A stretch of 4,828 nt of DNA from a virus (lineage: Duplodnaviria; Heunggongvirae; Uroviricota; Caudoviricetes): the IMG/VR virus record IMGVR_UViG_2695420822_000011; one strand, given 5' to 3'. Shown here piece by piece: positions 1 to 4,828 of this stretch; position 1 is the stretch's first letter; each line of letters starts with the position of its first letter. The notes beneath the pieces are model-generated. The model was not told the DNA's origin, searched no databases, and worked only from the letters and a program-made list of their open reading frames with translations. A program made the position numbers and the translations under genes.

Positions 1-40
1 TCTGAACATAAAACACTATCAATAAGTTGGAGTCATTACC
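1..40 (+). mobile_element. IS1 right terminus (3' end of an IS1 copy truncated by the window edge). Carries the last insB codons (..L N I K H Y Q, TAA stop at 23..25) and the 23-bp terminal inverted repeat at 18..40.
   Basis: Positions 1..40 (tctgaacataaaacactatcaataagttggagtcattacc) match the IS1 right end as I remember it, finishing with the terminal repeat ATCAATAAGTTGGAGTCATTACC. Reading frame 2..25 gives the insB C-terminus. Confidence 0.85.
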
Positions 41-128
41 CCAATTTTTTACGTACGTAAACCACTAAATGATATTTGCGAGAATGCTACCGAGTATTGA
101 AAACACCACTACAAATACATAAGCAAAT

Positions 129-414
129 NNNNNNNNNNNNNNNNNNNNNNNNNNNNNNNNNNNNNNNNNNNNNNNNNNNNNNNNNNNNNNNNNNNNNNNN
201 NNNNNNNNNNNNNNNNNNNNNNNNNNNNNNNNNNNNNNNNNNNNNNNNNNNNNNNNNNNNNNNNNNNNNNNNNNNNNNNNNNNNNNNNNNNNNNNNNNNN
301 NNNNNNNNNNNNNNNNNNNNNNNNNNNNNNNNNNNNNNNNNNNNNNNNNNNNNNNNNNNNNNNNNNNNNNNNNNNNNNNNNNNNNNNNNNNNNNNNNNNN
401 NNNNNNNNNNNNNN
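129..414. other. Assembly gap (286 consecutive N)
   Basis: Uninterrupted run of n characters. The ORFs in the track that span it (76..453 +, 87..446 -) are artefacts of translating N. Confidence 0.99.
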
Positions 415-478
415 TTAGATGAATATTTATCGCGCAGTGACATCATTTTTTAATAATAGTTCAAAAAAAGGGCTCACG

Positions 479-1561
479 ATGAAAAAATTAACAGTGGCAA
501 TTTCTGCTGTAGCTGCATCAGTACTGATGGCGATGTCTGCTCAGGCAGCTGAAATTTATAATAAAGACAGTAACAAGCTGGATCTGTACGGGAAAGTTAA
601 TGCTAAGCACTACTTCTCCTCTAATGATGCAGATGATGGTGATACTACTTATGCCCGTCTTGGCTTCAAAGGTGAAACCCAAATCAACGATCAACTGACT
701 GGTTTCGGTCAGTGGGAATATGAATTCAAAGGCAACCGCGCTGAATCTCAAGGTTCCTCCAAAGATAAAACCCGTCTTGCCTTCGCTGGCCTGAAATTCG
801 GTGACTACGGCTCCATCGATTACGGCCGTAACTACGGTGTAGCATACGACATCGGTGCGTGGACTGACGTCCTGCCAGAATTCGGTGGTGACACTTGGAC
901 TCAAACAGATGTGTTCATGACTGGTCGCACCACTGGTGTTGCAACTTATCGTAACAACGACTTCTTTGGTCTGGTTGATGGTCTGAACTTTGCTGCTCAG
1001 TATCAGGGTAAAAATGACCGCACTGACGTAACTGAAGCTAATGGTGATGGTTTCGGTTTCTCCACTACTTATGAGTATGAAGGATTCGGTGTAGGTGCAA
1101 CCTATGCTAAATCTGACCGCACTAATAATCAGGTTATCTACGGTAACAACAGCCTGAATGCATCTGGTCAAAATGCTGAAGTATGGGCAGCTGGTCTGAA
1201 ATATGATGCGAACAACATCTATCTGGCTACCACCTATTCTGAAACCCAGAACATGACTGTTTTTGGTAATAACCATATTGCCAACAAAGCACAAAACTTC
1301 GAAGTAGTTGCACAATATCAGTTCGACTTCGGTCTGCGTCCGTCCGTTGCTTACCTGCAATCTAAAGGAAAAGACTTGGGTGCGTGGGGTGATCAGGACC
1401 TGGTTGAATATATTGATGTAGGTGCAACCTATTACTTCAACAAAAATATGTCCACTTTTGTTGATTACAAAATCAACCTGATTGATAAGAGCGATTTCAC
1501 GAAAGCATCTGGCGTTGCTACCGATGATATCGTTGCTGTAGGTATGGTTTACCAGTTCTAA
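479..1561 (+). CDS. nmpC: Outer-membrane general porin, OmpC/OmpF/PhoE family, prophage-encoded NmpC / Lc type (360 aa precursor)
   Basis: Translation [23 protein letters not shown]|[16 protein letters not shown]... has a typical Sec signal peptide (cleavage after AQA), a mature N-terminus as in OmpC/NmpC, aromatic/Gly-rich beta-strand pattern and a C-terminal ...VGMVYQF ending in Phe. The track ORF begins upstream at 419, but the ATG at 479 gives the canonical signal peptide. Position next to the Q antiterminator gene matches the DLP12 nmpC and phage PA-2 lc arrangement. Confidence 0.93.
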
Positions 1562-1585
1562 TTTGATTACTAAAAGATATGTTGC

Positions 1586-1602
1586 GGGAGGCTTTGCCTC
1601 CC
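1586..1602. repeat. Inverted repeat / hairpin GGGAGGC-ttt-GCCTCCC, 25 nt downstream of the porin stop
   Basis: Perfect 7-bp inverted repeat read directly. No U-tract follows on either strand, so it is not a canonical intrinsic terminator; it may be an RNA-stability or processing hairpin. Confidence 0.5.
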
Positions 1603-1610
1603 CAACATAT

Positions 1611-1632
1611 AAGTGGCTCCCTCAAGCCACTT
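1611..1632. repeat. Inverted repeat / hairpin AAGTGGCT-ccctca-AGCCACTT
   Basis: Perfect 8-bp arms with a 6-nt loop read directly; no adjacent U-tract. Confidence 0.5.
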
Positions 1633-1697
1633 CCTTTAGGAGCACAACCTTGCTTCTAACTATATAAACCTTCTGTTATATATTACCCTTTATTTTT

Positions 1698-1722
1698 GGG
1701 GGCGTTGCAACGCCCCATTTTT
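1698..1722 (+). terminator. Rho-independent terminator for the porin transcript
   Basis: GC-rich perfect palindrome GGGGCGTTGCAACGCCCC (1699..1716) immediately followed by ATTTTT. On the minus strand the same hairpin is followed by an A-run, so it is oriented for the + strand. Confidence 0.8.
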
Positions 1723-1749
1723 AATAATTTTTAGTAAACAATTGGCATA

Positions 1750-2133
1750 TTAATTAGAGTTATTAACAACGATATCCATCTCTAACCGGATATCTAATGC
1801 CATTAACATCCCTTCAATTATGCCCTCAGCCTTCTGTAACCTTTTCCCGATATAACCATCAGAGCAGCAATGCTTACCTGCCAGTGACATGAATGTCATA
1901 CCGACTACATAATAATCTACTAATAAATCGTGCAAATCGCTGTTGTTCTTTTTCAGACGGGCCATGCACCCGCAAATAATCATCGCGTCATCGTCACAAC
2001 ATTGCGGGCGAGATTTTACTTTTGAAGTAATTAATCCCTTAAAACCGGCGGCAATGGACGACCAGGTCACATCTTCATGATTATTAGCCGCCCACGCTCC
2101 CCAACGCTCAAGAACCATCTGAATATCACGCAT
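1750..2133 (-). CDS. quuD: Late-gene antiterminator Q (DLP12 QuuD / YbcQ type, 127 aa)
   Basis: Translation [26 protein letters not shown]...[16 protein letters not shown]...DIVVNNSN matches my memory of E. coli QuuD. Start ATG at 2131..2133 is preceded by GGAG at 7-nt spacing. The track ORF begins at an upstream TTG (2148) that is unlikely to be the real start. Confidence 0.88.
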
Positions 2134-2218
2134 CAACTTACTCCACAAAAATCAGACCAGAACGCCAATTACAAGCAAAAATCAACAAAACAGTATTAGT
2201 TGATTGTTATCTCTGACT

Positions 2219-2356
2219 TCATACTCCTGCTCCTGTCAGGGTTTTGGCGTAATTCTTCAGTATTCGGTAATCGGTCAAAACAGAACCGGGGAAACGATAT
2301 AAGCGCAGATGCCCCCAGCGGTGGCGAAGAAGTTCTGCCATATAAAACTCAAACAT
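2219..2356 (-). CDS. ylcG: Small prophage protein, YlcG-like (45 aa)
   Basis: Minus-strand [48 protein letters not shown] found by hand (below the ORF-track size cutoff). Its ATG overlaps the rusA stop (TGATG), and it fills the rusA-quuD gap where K-12 has ylcG. Confidence 0.65.
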   Translation of the reverse strand: MFEFYMAELLRHRWGHLRLYRFPGSVLTDYRILKNYAKTLTGAGV

Positions 2357-2718
2357 CATTCATTCCCCATTTCGGTGATGGTCAGTTCCAGCCTCCCACC
2401 TTTGGTAACAGGCATCTTCACAACGCGGTAATCAACGACCTGAGCATCATCCAGCCAGAAACCTGCTTTGGTGAGTGCGTCAAAAGCGGCTTTTTGCAGA
2501 TTATCCAGGTCACGGCGACGGCGATCCGGCATGTGGCACTCAATACGGATTTTCACTGGCATAGCCAGGCCGATATCCAGCATTGCGTTTTTAATGATTC
2601 GGGTGACGTTATCGCGGTATGCCTGCCCTTCTGCGCTGATGTGTGTGCGCCCGCGATTATGGCGGTAATAGCGGTTATTGCTCGGAGGCCAGGGTAATGT
2701 GATGCTGTAGGTATTCAC
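2356..2718 (-). CDS. rusA: Crossover junction endodeoxyribonuclease RusA (Holliday junction resolvase, 120 aa)
   Basis: Translation [26 protein letters not shown]...[12 protein letters not shown] is essentially identical to E. coli K-12 RusA as I remember it. Its start overlaps the ybcO stop (ATGA). Confidence 0.95.
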
Positions 2719-3005
2719 GCCTTAATAACCCCCTCTTTCAGCCAGATAACCTGCGTTCTCGCCATACCTTCCAGCGCGCATTCTTTTGCATACTCAGCAT
2801 CGACAAAATATGTGCGGCGGTCGATTTCGTCGTGACAGGCAGAACATGCAATGGTGGCAATCAGGTCTGGCGGTTTGATACCGGTACCGCACAATCCAGC
2901 CAGCCGGATATGTGCCAGTACTGACGTTTCAGGATTGCCATTACATACGCCAGGGATTCTTACCTGGCATTCCCGACCACGCGCTGCTTTTCTCAAATCA
3001 GCCAT
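2715..3005 (-). CDS. ybcO: YbcO-like prophage protein (96 aa, Cys-rich, putative nuclease)
   Basis: Translation [37 protein letters not shown]... with several Cys residues. Length and position (between ninE and rusA) match DLP12 YbcO. Confidence 0.82.
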
Positions 3006-3169
3006 GATTCCTCCTTGCTGCCAGTCGCAACCATTTTTTTATCAACCAGGCTAGCGGTATATCCGAGCAGTGTTGGTATTTCGGATGGCTTCAGCTCAGG
3101 CTTACGCTTACGACGATTTGATACTCTGTAGATGTGCCCGTTCATGACACGAATAAGCGGTGTAGCCAT
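2993..3169 (-). CDS. ninE: NinE-family small protein (58 aa as encoded here; C-terminus possibly frameshifted)
   Basis: Hand-translated minus-strand [61 protein letters not shown]. The start overlaps the ybcN stop (TAATG). A 7-nt A run (plus-strand T run 3034..3040) precedes the C-terminal 13 codons. Confidence 0.7.
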   Translation of the reverse strand: MATPLIRVMNGHIYRVSNRRKRKPELKPSEIPTLLGYTASLVDKKMVATGSKEESWLI

Positions 3170-3624
3170 TACGCCTCCTGCTTATCGCGCAGCTGCTGGT
3201 ATTCACAGCTCTGCGGAATTGTCAGGTGGCAGCCGATATTCATCGCCCAGGCTTCGACTTTGCACAGGAAGATGTACATCTCGCCGGTTTCCAGCTCTGA
3301 CGTATGGCGGAGGGATTGGACGGTGGTGACCTCGCCGGACACGACATCTACACGGTCTTTGCTTTCGTAGCCGAGATAGGTGTGCTTCATCGCGTCTTTG
3401 ACCCACTCAGGCGTAGCGAAGGTCTTGCCGCGGGCGATGAGATATTCGCTGATCTCCGTGTACCACATGTGGCTGAGCGCGTTCTGCGACAGGCTGCGCT
3501 TCTCGCGCCACGGCTTAACCTGCAGGCGTAAGCATTGCCCGGCATCCAGCAATGGCTGAATCTGCTGGCCGATGGCCGCGAAGTTACCGCGATGGAGTTT
3601 GATGCCGTCTACTGGCAGAGTCAT
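3169..3624 (-). CDS. ybcN: NinB-family protein (DLP12 YbcN-like, 151 aa; reported DNA base-flipping / recombination-associated)
   Basis: Translation MTLPVDGIKLHRGNFAAIGQQ...REKRSLSQNALSHMWY... contains the RSLxQN motif shared with lambda NinB. Strong SD (GGGAGG, plus-strand 3629..3634) lies 4 nt upstream of the ATG at 3622..3624. Confidence 0.85.
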   Translation of the reverse strand: MTLPVDGIKLHRGNFAAIGQQIQPLLDAGQCLRLQVKPWREKRSLSQNALSHMWYTEISEYLIARGKTFATPEWVKDAMKHTYLGYESKDRVDVVSGEVTTVQSLRHTSELETGEMYIFLCKVEAWAMNIGCHLTIPQSCEYQQLRDKQEA

Positions 3625-3650
3625 ACGGCCTCCCTAACGGAAACCGCAGA

Positions 3651-3680
3651 ATGCAGAAAATCGCAGGTGCATTTCTGCAT
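3651..3680. repeat. Inverted repeat ATGCAGAAA-(12 nt)-TTTCTGCAT upstream of ybcN
   Basis: Perfect 9-bp arms read directly, 27 nt upstream of the ybcN start. Function unknown (operator or terminator-like element). Confidence 0.45.
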
Positions 3681-3711
3681 CTGTGACAAGGTGATGAGTT
3701 CAGATTGTGGT

Positions 3712-3735
3712 CGCATTTAAGTCCCCTTAAATGCG
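3712..3735. repeat. Inverted repeat CGCATTTAA-gtcccc-TTAAATGCG
   Basis: Perfect 9-bp arms with a 6-nt loop read directly, in the divergent intergenic region between ybcN and the AT-rich cassette. No flanking U-tract. Confidence 0.45.
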
Positions 3736-3822
3736 CAGAAGTCACCGGAGTTGTTCAGGCTCCGATGAGAGGATTATGGCGGATTGATTACGATAAATCA
3801 AAACTATCTTGAAGCCAAAACA

Positions 3823-3851
3823 GTGATCTTCGCTTTAAAAACCTTGTATAC
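3823..3851 (+). promoter_or_regulatory. Candidate sigma70 promoter for the AT-rich cassette (-10 TATACT at 3846..3851; weak -35 GTGATC at 3823..3828)
   Basis: Hexamer match only: the -10 has 5/6 matches to TATAAT, the -35 is poor. Sits about 38 nt upstream of the ATG at 3889. Confidence 0.25.
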
Positions 3852-3888
3852 TTTCACCTAATCACAGCCAGAACTATGGATCTAACCA

Positions 3889-4266
3889 ATGACCAACAAA
3901 GAAAACAAAGATAAATATATTAACAAGTTCAAGAAAGAGCTTTCAAAATATATACAACCAACTGCTGGAGTGGACATTCAATTATTTAACTCTAAGGATG
4001 GTGGTGGTGTAATTAAAGCCACTTTGAATAGAAGTGGAAAAAGAAAATCATCTATTGCTGGTAATTTTACTAAATTAGGTGAGGCAATTACCTCGAGTGG
4101 GCAGAGGGTTTTTGGTGGTGATCTATCAAATGTGAATTTTTACGGAACAAATACGATTTTTGATGGAGATACAATATTTTTAATTAAATCACCTGATTCA
4201 GAGGAGTGGTCATCACAAAAAGCTTCCAAAGACGTAGAGGGCATCGTATTTGGAGGGAAAAAATGA
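3889..4266 (+). CDS. Hypothetical protein, 125 aa, Lys/Gly-rich, no transmembrane segment, no recognisable domain
   Basis: Long ORF in very AT-rich DNA, translating MTNKENKDKYINKFKKELSKYIQ...GGDLSNVNFYGTNTIFDGDTIFLIKSPDSEEW...GIVFGGKK. Its stop overlaps the next gene's start (ATGA). Weak RBS. Confidence 0.6.
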   Translation: MTNKENKDKYINKFKKELSKYIQPTAGVDIQLFNSKDGGGVIKATLNRSGKRKSSIAGNFTKLGEAITSSGQRVFGGDLSNVNFYGTNTIFDGDTIFLIKSPDSEEWSSQKASKDVEGIVFGGKK

Positions 4267-4691
4267 TTAACATTACTACTAAGGATGGCACTCAAGTCAG
4301 TGGTGAAGTAAGAGATCTAGTAATTCTTCTTGAAACTGATGGAAAAACGGTGTCTGATTATTTGCAGCCAATCCCTCCCAAAAAAGATACACACTGGAGC
4401 ATGATTTTCATTCCGGTAGCAATTTATATACTACTTAATCTTGTATACATTATTGCTCACCCATTATTTCCTGAAAAATATCTAAAAACATCAACATCTA
4501 TATTTCTATTCATTTCCTTCATATTAAGTGCAATAGTAGCATATTTTGTTTTCCATAAGCATAAATCTGCCACTCTATCCATATGCAGCTTAGTGTTCTT
4601 AGTGTTAATTGTAGGTGCTAACGTAGGGTTTATCAGTTACAGCGACCTAACACAAAAAGCGACGCAAAAATTAGATAGTTTGTCTAAATAA
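4263..4691 (+). CDS. Hypothetical small membrane protein, 142 aa: about 45-aa soluble N-terminal domain followed by three predicted transmembrane helices
   Basis: ATG at 4263 is preceded by a strong SD (GGAGGG, 4252..4257, 5-nt spacing) and overlaps the upstream stop. Hydrophobic stretches at roughly residues 45-69, 77-97 and 103-125 (WSMIFIPVAIYILLNLVYIIAHPLF; SIFLFISFILSAIVAYFVF; LSICSLVFLVLIVGANVGFI) with short K/H-rich loops. The track's upstream extension to 4206 is probably not translated. Confidence 0.65.
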   Translation: MINITTKDGTQVSGEVRDLVILLETDGKTVSDYLQPIPPKKDTHWSMIFIPVAIYILLNLVYIIAHPLFPEKYLKTSTSIFLFISFILSAIVAYFVFHKHKSATLSICSLVFLVLIVGANVGFISYSDLTQKATQKLDSLSK

Positions 4692-4698
4692 TTATGTT

Positions 4699-4719
4699 GC
4701 CATGCGAAGTATGCATGGC
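4699..4719 (+). repeat. Inverted repeat GCCATGC-gaagtat-GCATGGC just after the cassette stop (possible terminator stem)
   Basis: Perfect 7-bp arms read directly, 8 nt after the TAA at 4689..4691. No clean U-tract follows, so a terminator call is weak. Confidence 0.35.
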
Positions 4720-4798
4720 TGCATGTCTGCCTTCCATTTAAAATGGGCTAAGACCTATAACCCTAAATATTATTCTTTATTATCTTCTTTACCACTTC

Positions 4799-4828
4799 GG
4801 TGATGCTGCCAACTTACTGATTTAGTGT
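4799..4828 (+). mobile_element. IS1 left terminus (5' end of a second IS1 copy, in the same orientation as the one at 1..40); 23-bp terminal repeat 4799..4821
   Basis: GGTGATGCTGCCAACTTACTGATTTAGTGT matches the IS1 left end upstream of insA as I remember it. The window ends inside the element. Confidence 0.85.

Follow-up and report, generated by a model that had tools for sequence, protein, structure and literature searches.

Two IS1 copies at the ends of a Shigella sonnei-type draft contig were very probably inserted separately into a decaying lambdoid prophage

The stretch of DNA analyzed here (the window; 4,828 bp) is an entire draft contig, CXBP01000228.1 of assembly GCA_001255875.1, from which it shows no differences, the run of Ns included. 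Judging by the junctions that it has in common with complete genomes, the assembly appears to be of the Shigella sonnei type. The features of the window are collected in Table 1. The contig stops 40 nt and 30 nt into IS1 because a repeat with so many copies is impassable to an assembler, and the two IS1 ends are the points where the short-read assembler halted at this multicopy repeat. Since the window is a complete contig, its bracketing by insertion sequences is largely a product of assembler break points. The flanks of the source isolate lie outside the contig, and full-length IS1 copies and target duplications were read from four related complete genomes with both junctions (L011; L013; L016, which is S. 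sonnei 4303; and L020).

Table 1. Features of the 4,828-bp window
Feature	Position	Strand	Basis and remarks
Left IS1, last 40 nt	1..40	+	insB stop TAA at 23-25, right inverted repeat at 18-40; contig end
Inner copy of 8-bp target-site duplication CCAATTTT	41..48		Left IS1 insertion
N run, 286 N	129..414		Scaffold gap of estimated size; AT-rich region upstream of porin gene
OmpC/NmpC-like porin, 360 aa	479..1561	+	Pfam Porin_1, E 3e-153; "porin OmpC" in ETEC1747
Antiterminator Q (quuD)	1750..2133	-	Pfam Phage_antitermQ, E 3.5e-53; RefSeq annotation
ylcG, small phage gene	2219..2359	-	Position and annotation in L001; PF26818 in relatives
rusA, Holliday-junction resolvase	2356..2718	-	Pfam RusA, E 1.6e-22
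ybcO (DUF1364/putative nuclease)	2715..3005	-	Pfam YbcO, E 1.6e-42
ninE, 58-aa form	2993..3169	-	58-aa form due to a T7 run at ~3034-3040 (T6 in relatives)
ybcN/NinB-like	3169..3624	-	Pfam NinB, E 3.6e-5, 24.0 bits vs 23.8 cut-off; YbcN family annotation
Two overlapping ORFs, 125 aa (3889-4266) and 142 aa (4263-4691)	3889..4691	+	phrog_18061, phrog_16940
Gene P 3' end, last 29 nt with stop codon	4770..4798	-	P CDS in L001 at 10681-11394 (-)
Right IS1, first 30 nt	4799..4828	+	Left inverted repeat; contig end

Between the IS1 ends, the cargo consists of some 4.7 kb of lambdoid (DLP12-like) prophage DNA. An uninterrupted prophage of E. coli ETEC1747 matches the inner segment colinearly at 99.6% identity and has it between essD and P; this closest intact relative is located at icd. 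The identity of the inner segment to its counterpart in L011, L013, L016, and L020 is 99.8-99.98% (no mismatches and one indel in L016), and several Escherichia phage records match the cargo at 90-95% identity over 77% of the query. The order of the nin, Q, and porin genes, located between P and the lysis genes, is that of a lambdoid (DLP12-like) prophage (ybcN/ninB, ninE, ybcO, rusA, ylcG, and Q, followed by the divergent porin gene), and position 4798 of the window corresponds to position 10709 of L001, inside the P coding sequence. The DLP12 prophage of E. coli K-12 carries ybcN-ninE-ybcO-rusA-ylcG-quuD-nmpC-essD, with nmpC interrupted by IS5. Our locus resembles it in gene order, in gene families, and in being a defective lambdoid prophage struck by insertion sequences. 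It differs in that the porin gene is intact, the insertion sequence is IS1 and lies outside the porin gene, and an extra two-ORF cassette is placed between ybcN and P. This cassette has a G+C content of 0.34, as against 0.47 for positions 41-3624, and runs on the strand opposite to the nin genes. Both of its PHROG families are labeled "unknown function," and for the two ORFs PADLOC returned no defense-system match and Pfam nothing above its cut-off. Rfam and tRNA scans of the window gave no matches.

The first-pass annotation had placed a 4758-bp segment between two directly oriented IS1 ends. Its coordinates and the direct orientation are correct: both terminal stretches are on the plus strand and match exactly the ends of a RefSeq-annotated 768-bp IS1A in L002, with the terminal inverted repeats present (IRL, GGTGATGCTGCCAACTTACTGAT...; IRR, ...ATCAATAAGTTGGAGTCATTACC). 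With up to 3 mismatches tolerated, each IS1-end pattern still has a single occurrence in the window, against 0 matches in 200 shuffles. The base at position 4799 (G) is compatible with both IS1 and the native P gene sequence, which leaves the right junction ambiguous by 1 nt. The interval 41-4798 likewise stands, whereas its length of 4758 bp counts the 286 Ns and is 4704-4709 bp in the four complete relatives. The N run (positions 129-414) corresponds to L001 6089-6326 and is a stretch of about 238 nt in relatives, which rules it out as a mask that preserves length.

Full-length IS1 copies, which the same annotation had proposed to look for beyond the window edges, were found on both sides in three of the four complete genomes. 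In L011, L013, and L020, both flanking copies measure 768 bp once an IS21 nested in the right copy, which splits it into 231 and 541 bp, is removed; the copies are 99.2-99.5% identical to IS1A, and InsA and DDE_Tnp_IS1 genes are called in them. At this locus, L013 has three IS1 copies of 768 bp each, the left one being the same in sequence as the third and the right one differing by 1 base. The same junctions are present in S. sonnei 4303 (L016), with IS1 copies assembled with internal gaps, and these garbled interiors are probably an assembly artifact.

The left IS1 is a simple insertion between essD and the porin gene with its own 8-bp duplication. In the four complete genomes, ...ATAACCAATTTT stands before it and CCAATTTTTTAC after it, so that CCAATTTT is present on both sides; the outer flank is the native essD-side sequence of the prophage, and E. 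coli ETEC1747 has ATAACCAATTTTTTACG as the empty site. The duplication made by IS1 is usually 9 bp, 8 bp being a known minority outcome. An IS1 control in L002 has a 9-bp duplication.

The right IS1 has a different structure. It interrupts the replication gene P, 29 nt short of the 3' end of the gene, and lacks a target duplication, its flanks being ACCACTTC and CGCTTGCAG in the four complete genomes; the junction therefore marks an IS1 rearrangement. On its outer side, part of the sucrose (csc) locus follows in inverted orientation, and a third, inverted IS1 lies 3.57 kb beyond the right copy. The inverted block between these two copies holds cscB, torI, and two ORFs. The 9-bp CGCTTGCAG next to the right IS1 matches CTGCAAGCG on the IRL side of the third copy. 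When the csc flanks are joined with a single 9-mer, the resulting empty site, at the cscB/cscK boundary, is at least 80% covered in 2,647 complete E. coli genomes, with 100% identity over all 400 nt among the top matches listed. The other flank of the third IS1 natively runs on into TraR and Dam of a torI-ended prophage adjoining cscB. If homologous inversion between IS1 copies in P and in csc were all that had happened, the rest of P would be expected beside the third copy; this is ruled out, as the flank there is the distal end of the cscB-torI block. An extra step of deletion or relocation is therefore needed.

Intramolecular replicative transposition of IS1 gives rise both to adjacent deletions and to duplicative inversions. 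The present arrangement resembles such products in that the right IS1 lacks a duplication, the 9 bp occur once beside it and in inverted form beside an inverted IS1, and the DNA between the right and third copies is inverted. The same end product is reached when a plain insertion is followed by recombination between homologous, inverted copies, and sequence does not distinguish the two routes.

The first-pass annotation had read the whole segment as a composite-transposon-like unit. In Tn9, cat lies between directly repeated IS1 copies (IS1-cat-IS1). A Tn9-like transposon here would mean that both IS1 copies and the 4.7-kb cargo entered the site as a unit by way of their outer ends. The geometry is of the right type, with two full-length, direct IS1 copies (1 nt different) around a few kilobases of cargo. 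However, the left copy by itself carries the 8-bp duplication CCAATTTT, and beyond it the cargo's own prophage runs on toward essD in its native order, as in ETEC1747; the cargo therefore did not come from elsewhere. The outer ends of the pair, at which target-site duplications were to be sought, have unlike flanks in all four complete genomes (...CCAATTTT vs CGCTTGCAG...). In contrast to Tn9, the locus thus has no outer-end duplication in common, one copy has a duplication of its own, and the cargo, which is colinear with the prophage around it, is present as a unit at one locus only. At least 80% of the cargo was found in 0 of 72,556 plasmids and 0 of 50,697 phage records; either junction was found in 0 of 5,426 complete E. 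coli genomes and, by exact scan, in no species-representative genome, a collection in which the source lineage is not a representative. No second location of the unit came to light in these collections. Given the unlike outer flanks and the absence of the unit and its junctions from plasmids, phage records, and complete E. coli genomes, composite transposition is not supported and does not pass the refuting test named in the first-pass annotation, and we regard joint entry as extremely improbable. It is only marginally less improbable that the pair, although built in place by separate insertions, now serves as a functional translocatable or amplifiable IS1-porin-Q-rusA-IS1 unit in S. sonnei. 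Such a unit, if real, would alter the dosage of this prophage-borne porin gene or take the gene onto plasmids.

An explanation by solo or truncated IS1 ends in place of full elements, or by a chimeric misassembly of the contig, draws on the fact that 40 and 30 nt of IS1 are all that the window shows, and on the internally deleted IS1 at both positions in L016. It is nevertheless most improbable, in view of the complete 768-bp IS1 at both junctions in L011, L013, and L020 (nested IS21 removed); the same junction sequences also recur, both in the four complete genomes and in an unrelated Logan contig from another sample, which ends at the same right junction as the window. The two direct IS1 copies could mechanistically support deletion or amplification, as direct repeats of 768 bp that differ at 1 nt and lie about 4.7 kb apart are a competent RecA substrate, and IS1-linked rearrangement has clearly happened immediately to the right of the segment. 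That homologous recombination has left detectable deletion or tandem-amplification variants of the porin-Q-rusA segment in the population is nonetheless unlikely, if less remote than the other readings weighed here. In all four complete genomes the segment is present once between these junctions, with no deletion or amplification variant seen, and the homology is shortened in three of them by the IS21 that splits the right IS1. Moreover, the cargo ORF is located on contigs of 2-5 kb in thousands of draft assemblies, as expected for an intact unit; the 125-aa ORF was on contigs of this size in 6,298 of 12,488 collection blocks.

Collectively, these data indicate that the contig is very probably broken at two genuine IS1 copies, which entered and cut a decaying prophage in separate events, with no composite transposon involved. 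Junctions, target duplications, and full-length IS1 copies are observed directly, as is the csc empty site in contiguous form, and from these we infer the following order of events. The two flanking IS1 copies would have arrived separately, the left one by plain insertion into the essD-porin intergenic region with an 8-bp target duplication. The right one would have inserted near the 3' end of P and afterwards taken part in an IS1-mediated rearrangement, as a result of which the rest of P and the early prophage region no longer adjoin it. Its right end instead abuts the 3.57-kb inverted cscB-torI block, bounded by the third, inverted IS1, and the 9-bp duplication of the csc site is split between the second and third copies. 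The segment from P to TraR may have been deleted or moved elsewhere.

The first-pass annotation had pointed to IS1-dense genomes (Shigella, some E. coli) as ones in which prophages are often eroded in this way. The data support a host of an IS-dense Shigella type, since one of the genomes with the same junctions is S. sonnei 4303, and a prophage eroded by IS1, with both IS1 cuts and an IS1 rearrangement at the locus. In Shigella, IS1 is the most abundant insertion sequence and chromosomes carry hundreds of insertion sequences, whose copies interrupt genes and favor deletion and rearrangement between one another; in S. sonnei, the median is 286 per chromosome, of which IS1 makes up 42-59%, and IS21 is also listed for S. 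sonnei 53G (Hawkey et al. 2020, PMC7373316). Compared with the expansion of insertion sequences and genome decay described there, our locus is one example and does not differ in kind. IS1 erosion of a Shigella prophage is thus supported here as an ordinary event of a known kind.

For scans of draft genomes, the locus indicates that a window with the same insertion sequence at both ends is usually a whole contig broken at repeats, and that calling a composite transposon in such a window needs the outer flanks. For Shigella itself, it adds one more documented prophage cut by IS1 to a process already described at population scale, which amounts to little beyond bookkeeping. The locus also provides a clean worked example of a 9-bp IS1 target duplication split between two inverted copies of the element.

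The window began and ended in exact IS1 termini. Its first 40 nt were identical at all bases to the final 40 nt of the annotated 768-bp IS1A (RefSeq) of E. coli CV839-06, a stretch with the stop codon of insB and the right inverted repeat, and its last 30 nt to the opening 30 nt (left inverted repeat) of the same element. Both lay on the + strand, so that the direct orientation and positions given in the first-pass annotation were correct. Each end pattern matched the window once at ≤3 mismatches and none of 200 shuffles; the sole ambiguous base was position 4799, a G compatible with IS1 and native target alike. Flanking sequence was read from ten long contexts retrieved by the 125-aa open reading frame (ORF): six were E. 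coli-like uninterrupted prophages and four carried both window junctions, with inner segments at 99.8–99.98% identity to the window. One of these, L016 (GCA_002073875.2), which is Shigella sonnei 4303 according to its genome note (PMC6201595), differed from the window's inner segment by one indel. Full-length IS1 copies at both junctions, as had been supposed, were found in the other three related genomes (L011, L013, and L020), the left copy being complete (768 bp) and the right copy complete once a nested IS21-family element (istA/istB) was set aside. This element, at IS1 position 228–231 and with a 4-bp duplication, inactivates the transposase genes of the right copy and divides its homology into stretches of 231 and 541 bp. 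In L013, the left IS1 was identical to a third copy further to the right, and the right IS1 differed by one base. Both IS1 copies of L016 had internal gaps or duplications (e.g., 1–211 fused to 516–768), most likely a product of repeat collapse in the assembly and not of biology.

Loci sharing both junctions, and coordinates of features in the window and related prophage loci
Feature	Position	Strand	Remark
Loci with both junctions	L011 (CP104423.1), L013 (CP049179.1), L016 (CP029794.1), L020		exact junction match
N run	window 129–414		equivalent to L001 (ETEC1747) 6089–6326
Porin substitution cluster	window 586–901		
ninE T run	window about 3034–3040	-	T7
Two overlapping ORFs, function not known (125 aa, 142 aa)	window 3889–4691	+	strand opposite nin genes, between ybcN and P
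Missing G	equivalent of window 4288–4289		L013 and L007
Nested IS21-family element	L013 11141–13271		also in L011, L020
Inverted block: cscB, torI, two ORFs (3.57 kb)	L013 13813–18158		right IS1 to third IS1
Garbled IS1 copies	L016 5738–6201, 10911–11732		
IS1A in 125-aa ORF	L002 (CV839-06) 9946–10713		

The first-pass annotation had read the bracketed segment as composite-transposon-like, with target-site duplications to be sought at the outer ends. In all four genomes, the left IS1 was flanked by a repeat (...ATAA CCAATTTT - IS1 - CCAATTTT TTACG) whose empty site was present in E. coli ETEC1747 (ATAACCAATTTTTTACG), and the DNA outside it continued as native prophage toward essD; the left copy is a simple insertion bearing an 8-bp duplication of its own. 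The right IS1 (...TTTACCACTTC - IS1 - CGCTTGCAGTAACGG... in all four) was without duplication, and its outer flank was not the remainder of P, the gene it cuts 29 nt before the 3' end. Since CCAATTTT and CGCTTGCAG, on the outside of the pair, did not match, the two copies did not insert as one unit. Window 41–4798 was colinear with the uninterrupted lambdoid prophage of ETEC1747 at 99.6% identity, where the equivalent segment lies between the holin gene essD and the replication gene P of a prophage adjoining icd, and several Escherichia records in the phage collection shared 90–95% identity over 77% of the cargo. Pfam matches to porin, Q, RusA, YbcO, and NinB-like proteins bore out the previously named cargo genes porin, Q, and rusA. 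At ≥80% coverage, the cargo occurred in 0 of 72,556 plasmids and 0 of 50,697 phage records. The best matches among 5,426 complete E. coli genomes spanned 41–4799 only, without the IS1 ends; 120-nt junction queries returned only spurious matches (85–88% identity) in complete E. coli genomes, and both junctions were absent from the species-representative genome collection. The IS1-cargo-IS1 unit is known from a single locus and a single lineage. Three defining features of a composite transposon were lacking: a duplication common to the outer ends, occurrence at a second site, and foreign cargo. The companion proposal, that the genome is IS-dense and of Shigella type and that its prophage is eroded by IS1, was supported. 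Recombination between the two direct copies is possible in principle; no deletion or amplification variants were seen, the segment being single-copy in all four complete genomes.

Beyond the right IS1, the flank was cscB of the sucrose locus, inverted, followed by torI and two ORFs. At 3.57 kb lay the third IS1, in opposite orientation, with its IRL side flanked by CTGCAAGCG, the reverse complement of CGCTTGCAG. An empty csc site of 400 nt, rebuilt by reverse-complementing the first flank and joining it to the second through one copy of the 9-mer, was matched in full length at 100% identity among the top-listed records and, at ≥80% coverage, was present at the boundary of cscB and cscK in 2,647 complete E. 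coli genomes. As the joined flanks restored this native site, a single 9-bp target duplication is divided between two inverted IS1 copies, with inversion of the intervening DNA. Duplicative inversion through intramolecular replicative transposition could have produced this structure, as could homologous recombination of the inverted copies after a simple insertion, and the two routes are not separable by sequence. Beyond the block, cscK was broken further by an IS3-family element; given the inversion and this break, the sucrose locus is inactivated in this lineage. In L022, where a torI-ended prophage adjoins cscB, the sequence found on the other side of the third IS1 runs on natively into the prophage genes for TraR, an ORF of 71 aa, and Dam; in the ETEC1747 prophage, these same early-left-arm genes come after P, O, the repressor region, and the recombination genes. 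In the simplest history, IS1 would have inserted close to the P 3' end, the P-to-TraR segment would then have been lost from the junction via IS1-mediated adjacent deletion or recombination with another direct IS1, and the remaining 3.57-kb block would finally have been inverted. Judging from the 20-kb loci, the P-to-TraR segment was presumably deleted or relocated in the chromosome.

A look-up of the 58-aa NinE variant showed the window to be identical over 4828 bp to contig CXBP01000228.1 (GCA_001255875.1), including a run of 286 N, and it is therefore one complete contig from a scaffolded draft assembly. Because complete relatives have about 238 nt at the N run, and inner segments of 4704–4709 bp versus 4758 in the window, the run, present in the deposited NCBI contig too, is a scaffold gap of overestimated size and not a true-length mask. 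In complete relatives this stretch is AT-rich and precedes the porin gene, so that the promoter region of the porin is unsequenced in the source isolate. Short-read assembly yields contigs that stop tens of bases into a multicopy IS at either end. At the same right junction, contig L007 of an unrelated sample (Logan SRR22302711) ended after 26 nt of IS1, and the 125-aa ORF lay on 2–5 kb contigs in 6,298 of the 12,488 protein-collection blocks listing it. The apparent neatness of the IS1 bracketing is partly owed to where contigs break.

Sequence variation was also observed within the cargo. The window differed from ETEC1747 by 16 substitutions within 316 nt of the porin gene, each at a third codon position, compared with two substitutions and one indel in the remaining 3.9 kb of alignment, and this cluster looks like a small recombination patch. 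The T7 run, which is T6 in ETEC1747 and in all four complete Shigella-type genomes, alters the ninE frame to give the 58-aa product; as T7 also occurred in L007 and six other prophage contexts (L003–L005 and L008–L010), it is probably a real polymorphism and not an assembly error. The two-ORF region had a G+C content of 0.34 (0.47 for window 41–3624). The 125-aa and 142-aa ORFs matched phrog_18061 and phrog_16940, respectively, both labelled "unknown function," a PADLOC search gave no match for either, and the 142-aa product matched a 7-TM family in Pfam below threshold. By position and composition, they look like a putative moron-type cassette, possibly with phage exclusion as a candidate role. 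The G missing from L013 and L007 (GGATGGCACT to GGATGCACT) lies early in the 142-aa ORF and frameshifts this gene, which was not called in L011, L013, and L020 and was intact in the window and S. sonnei 4303. The same prophage in porcine E. coli CV839-06 has an IS1A copy that inserted independently into the 125-aa ORF and is flanked by a 9-bp duplication (TGAATAGAA); IS1 has struck this region in at least two lineages.

The median number of IS insertions per S. sonnei chromosome is 286, with an IS1 share of 42–59% (PMC7373316). By our own arithmetic, these counts correspond to approximately one IS1 per 30–40 kb, and at least a dozen neighbouring IS1 pairs per genome would be expected by chance within 5 kb, about half of them direct. 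At this density, direct IS1 copies lying 4.7 kb apart are unremarkable, and the structure of the window is ordinary and already known in kind.
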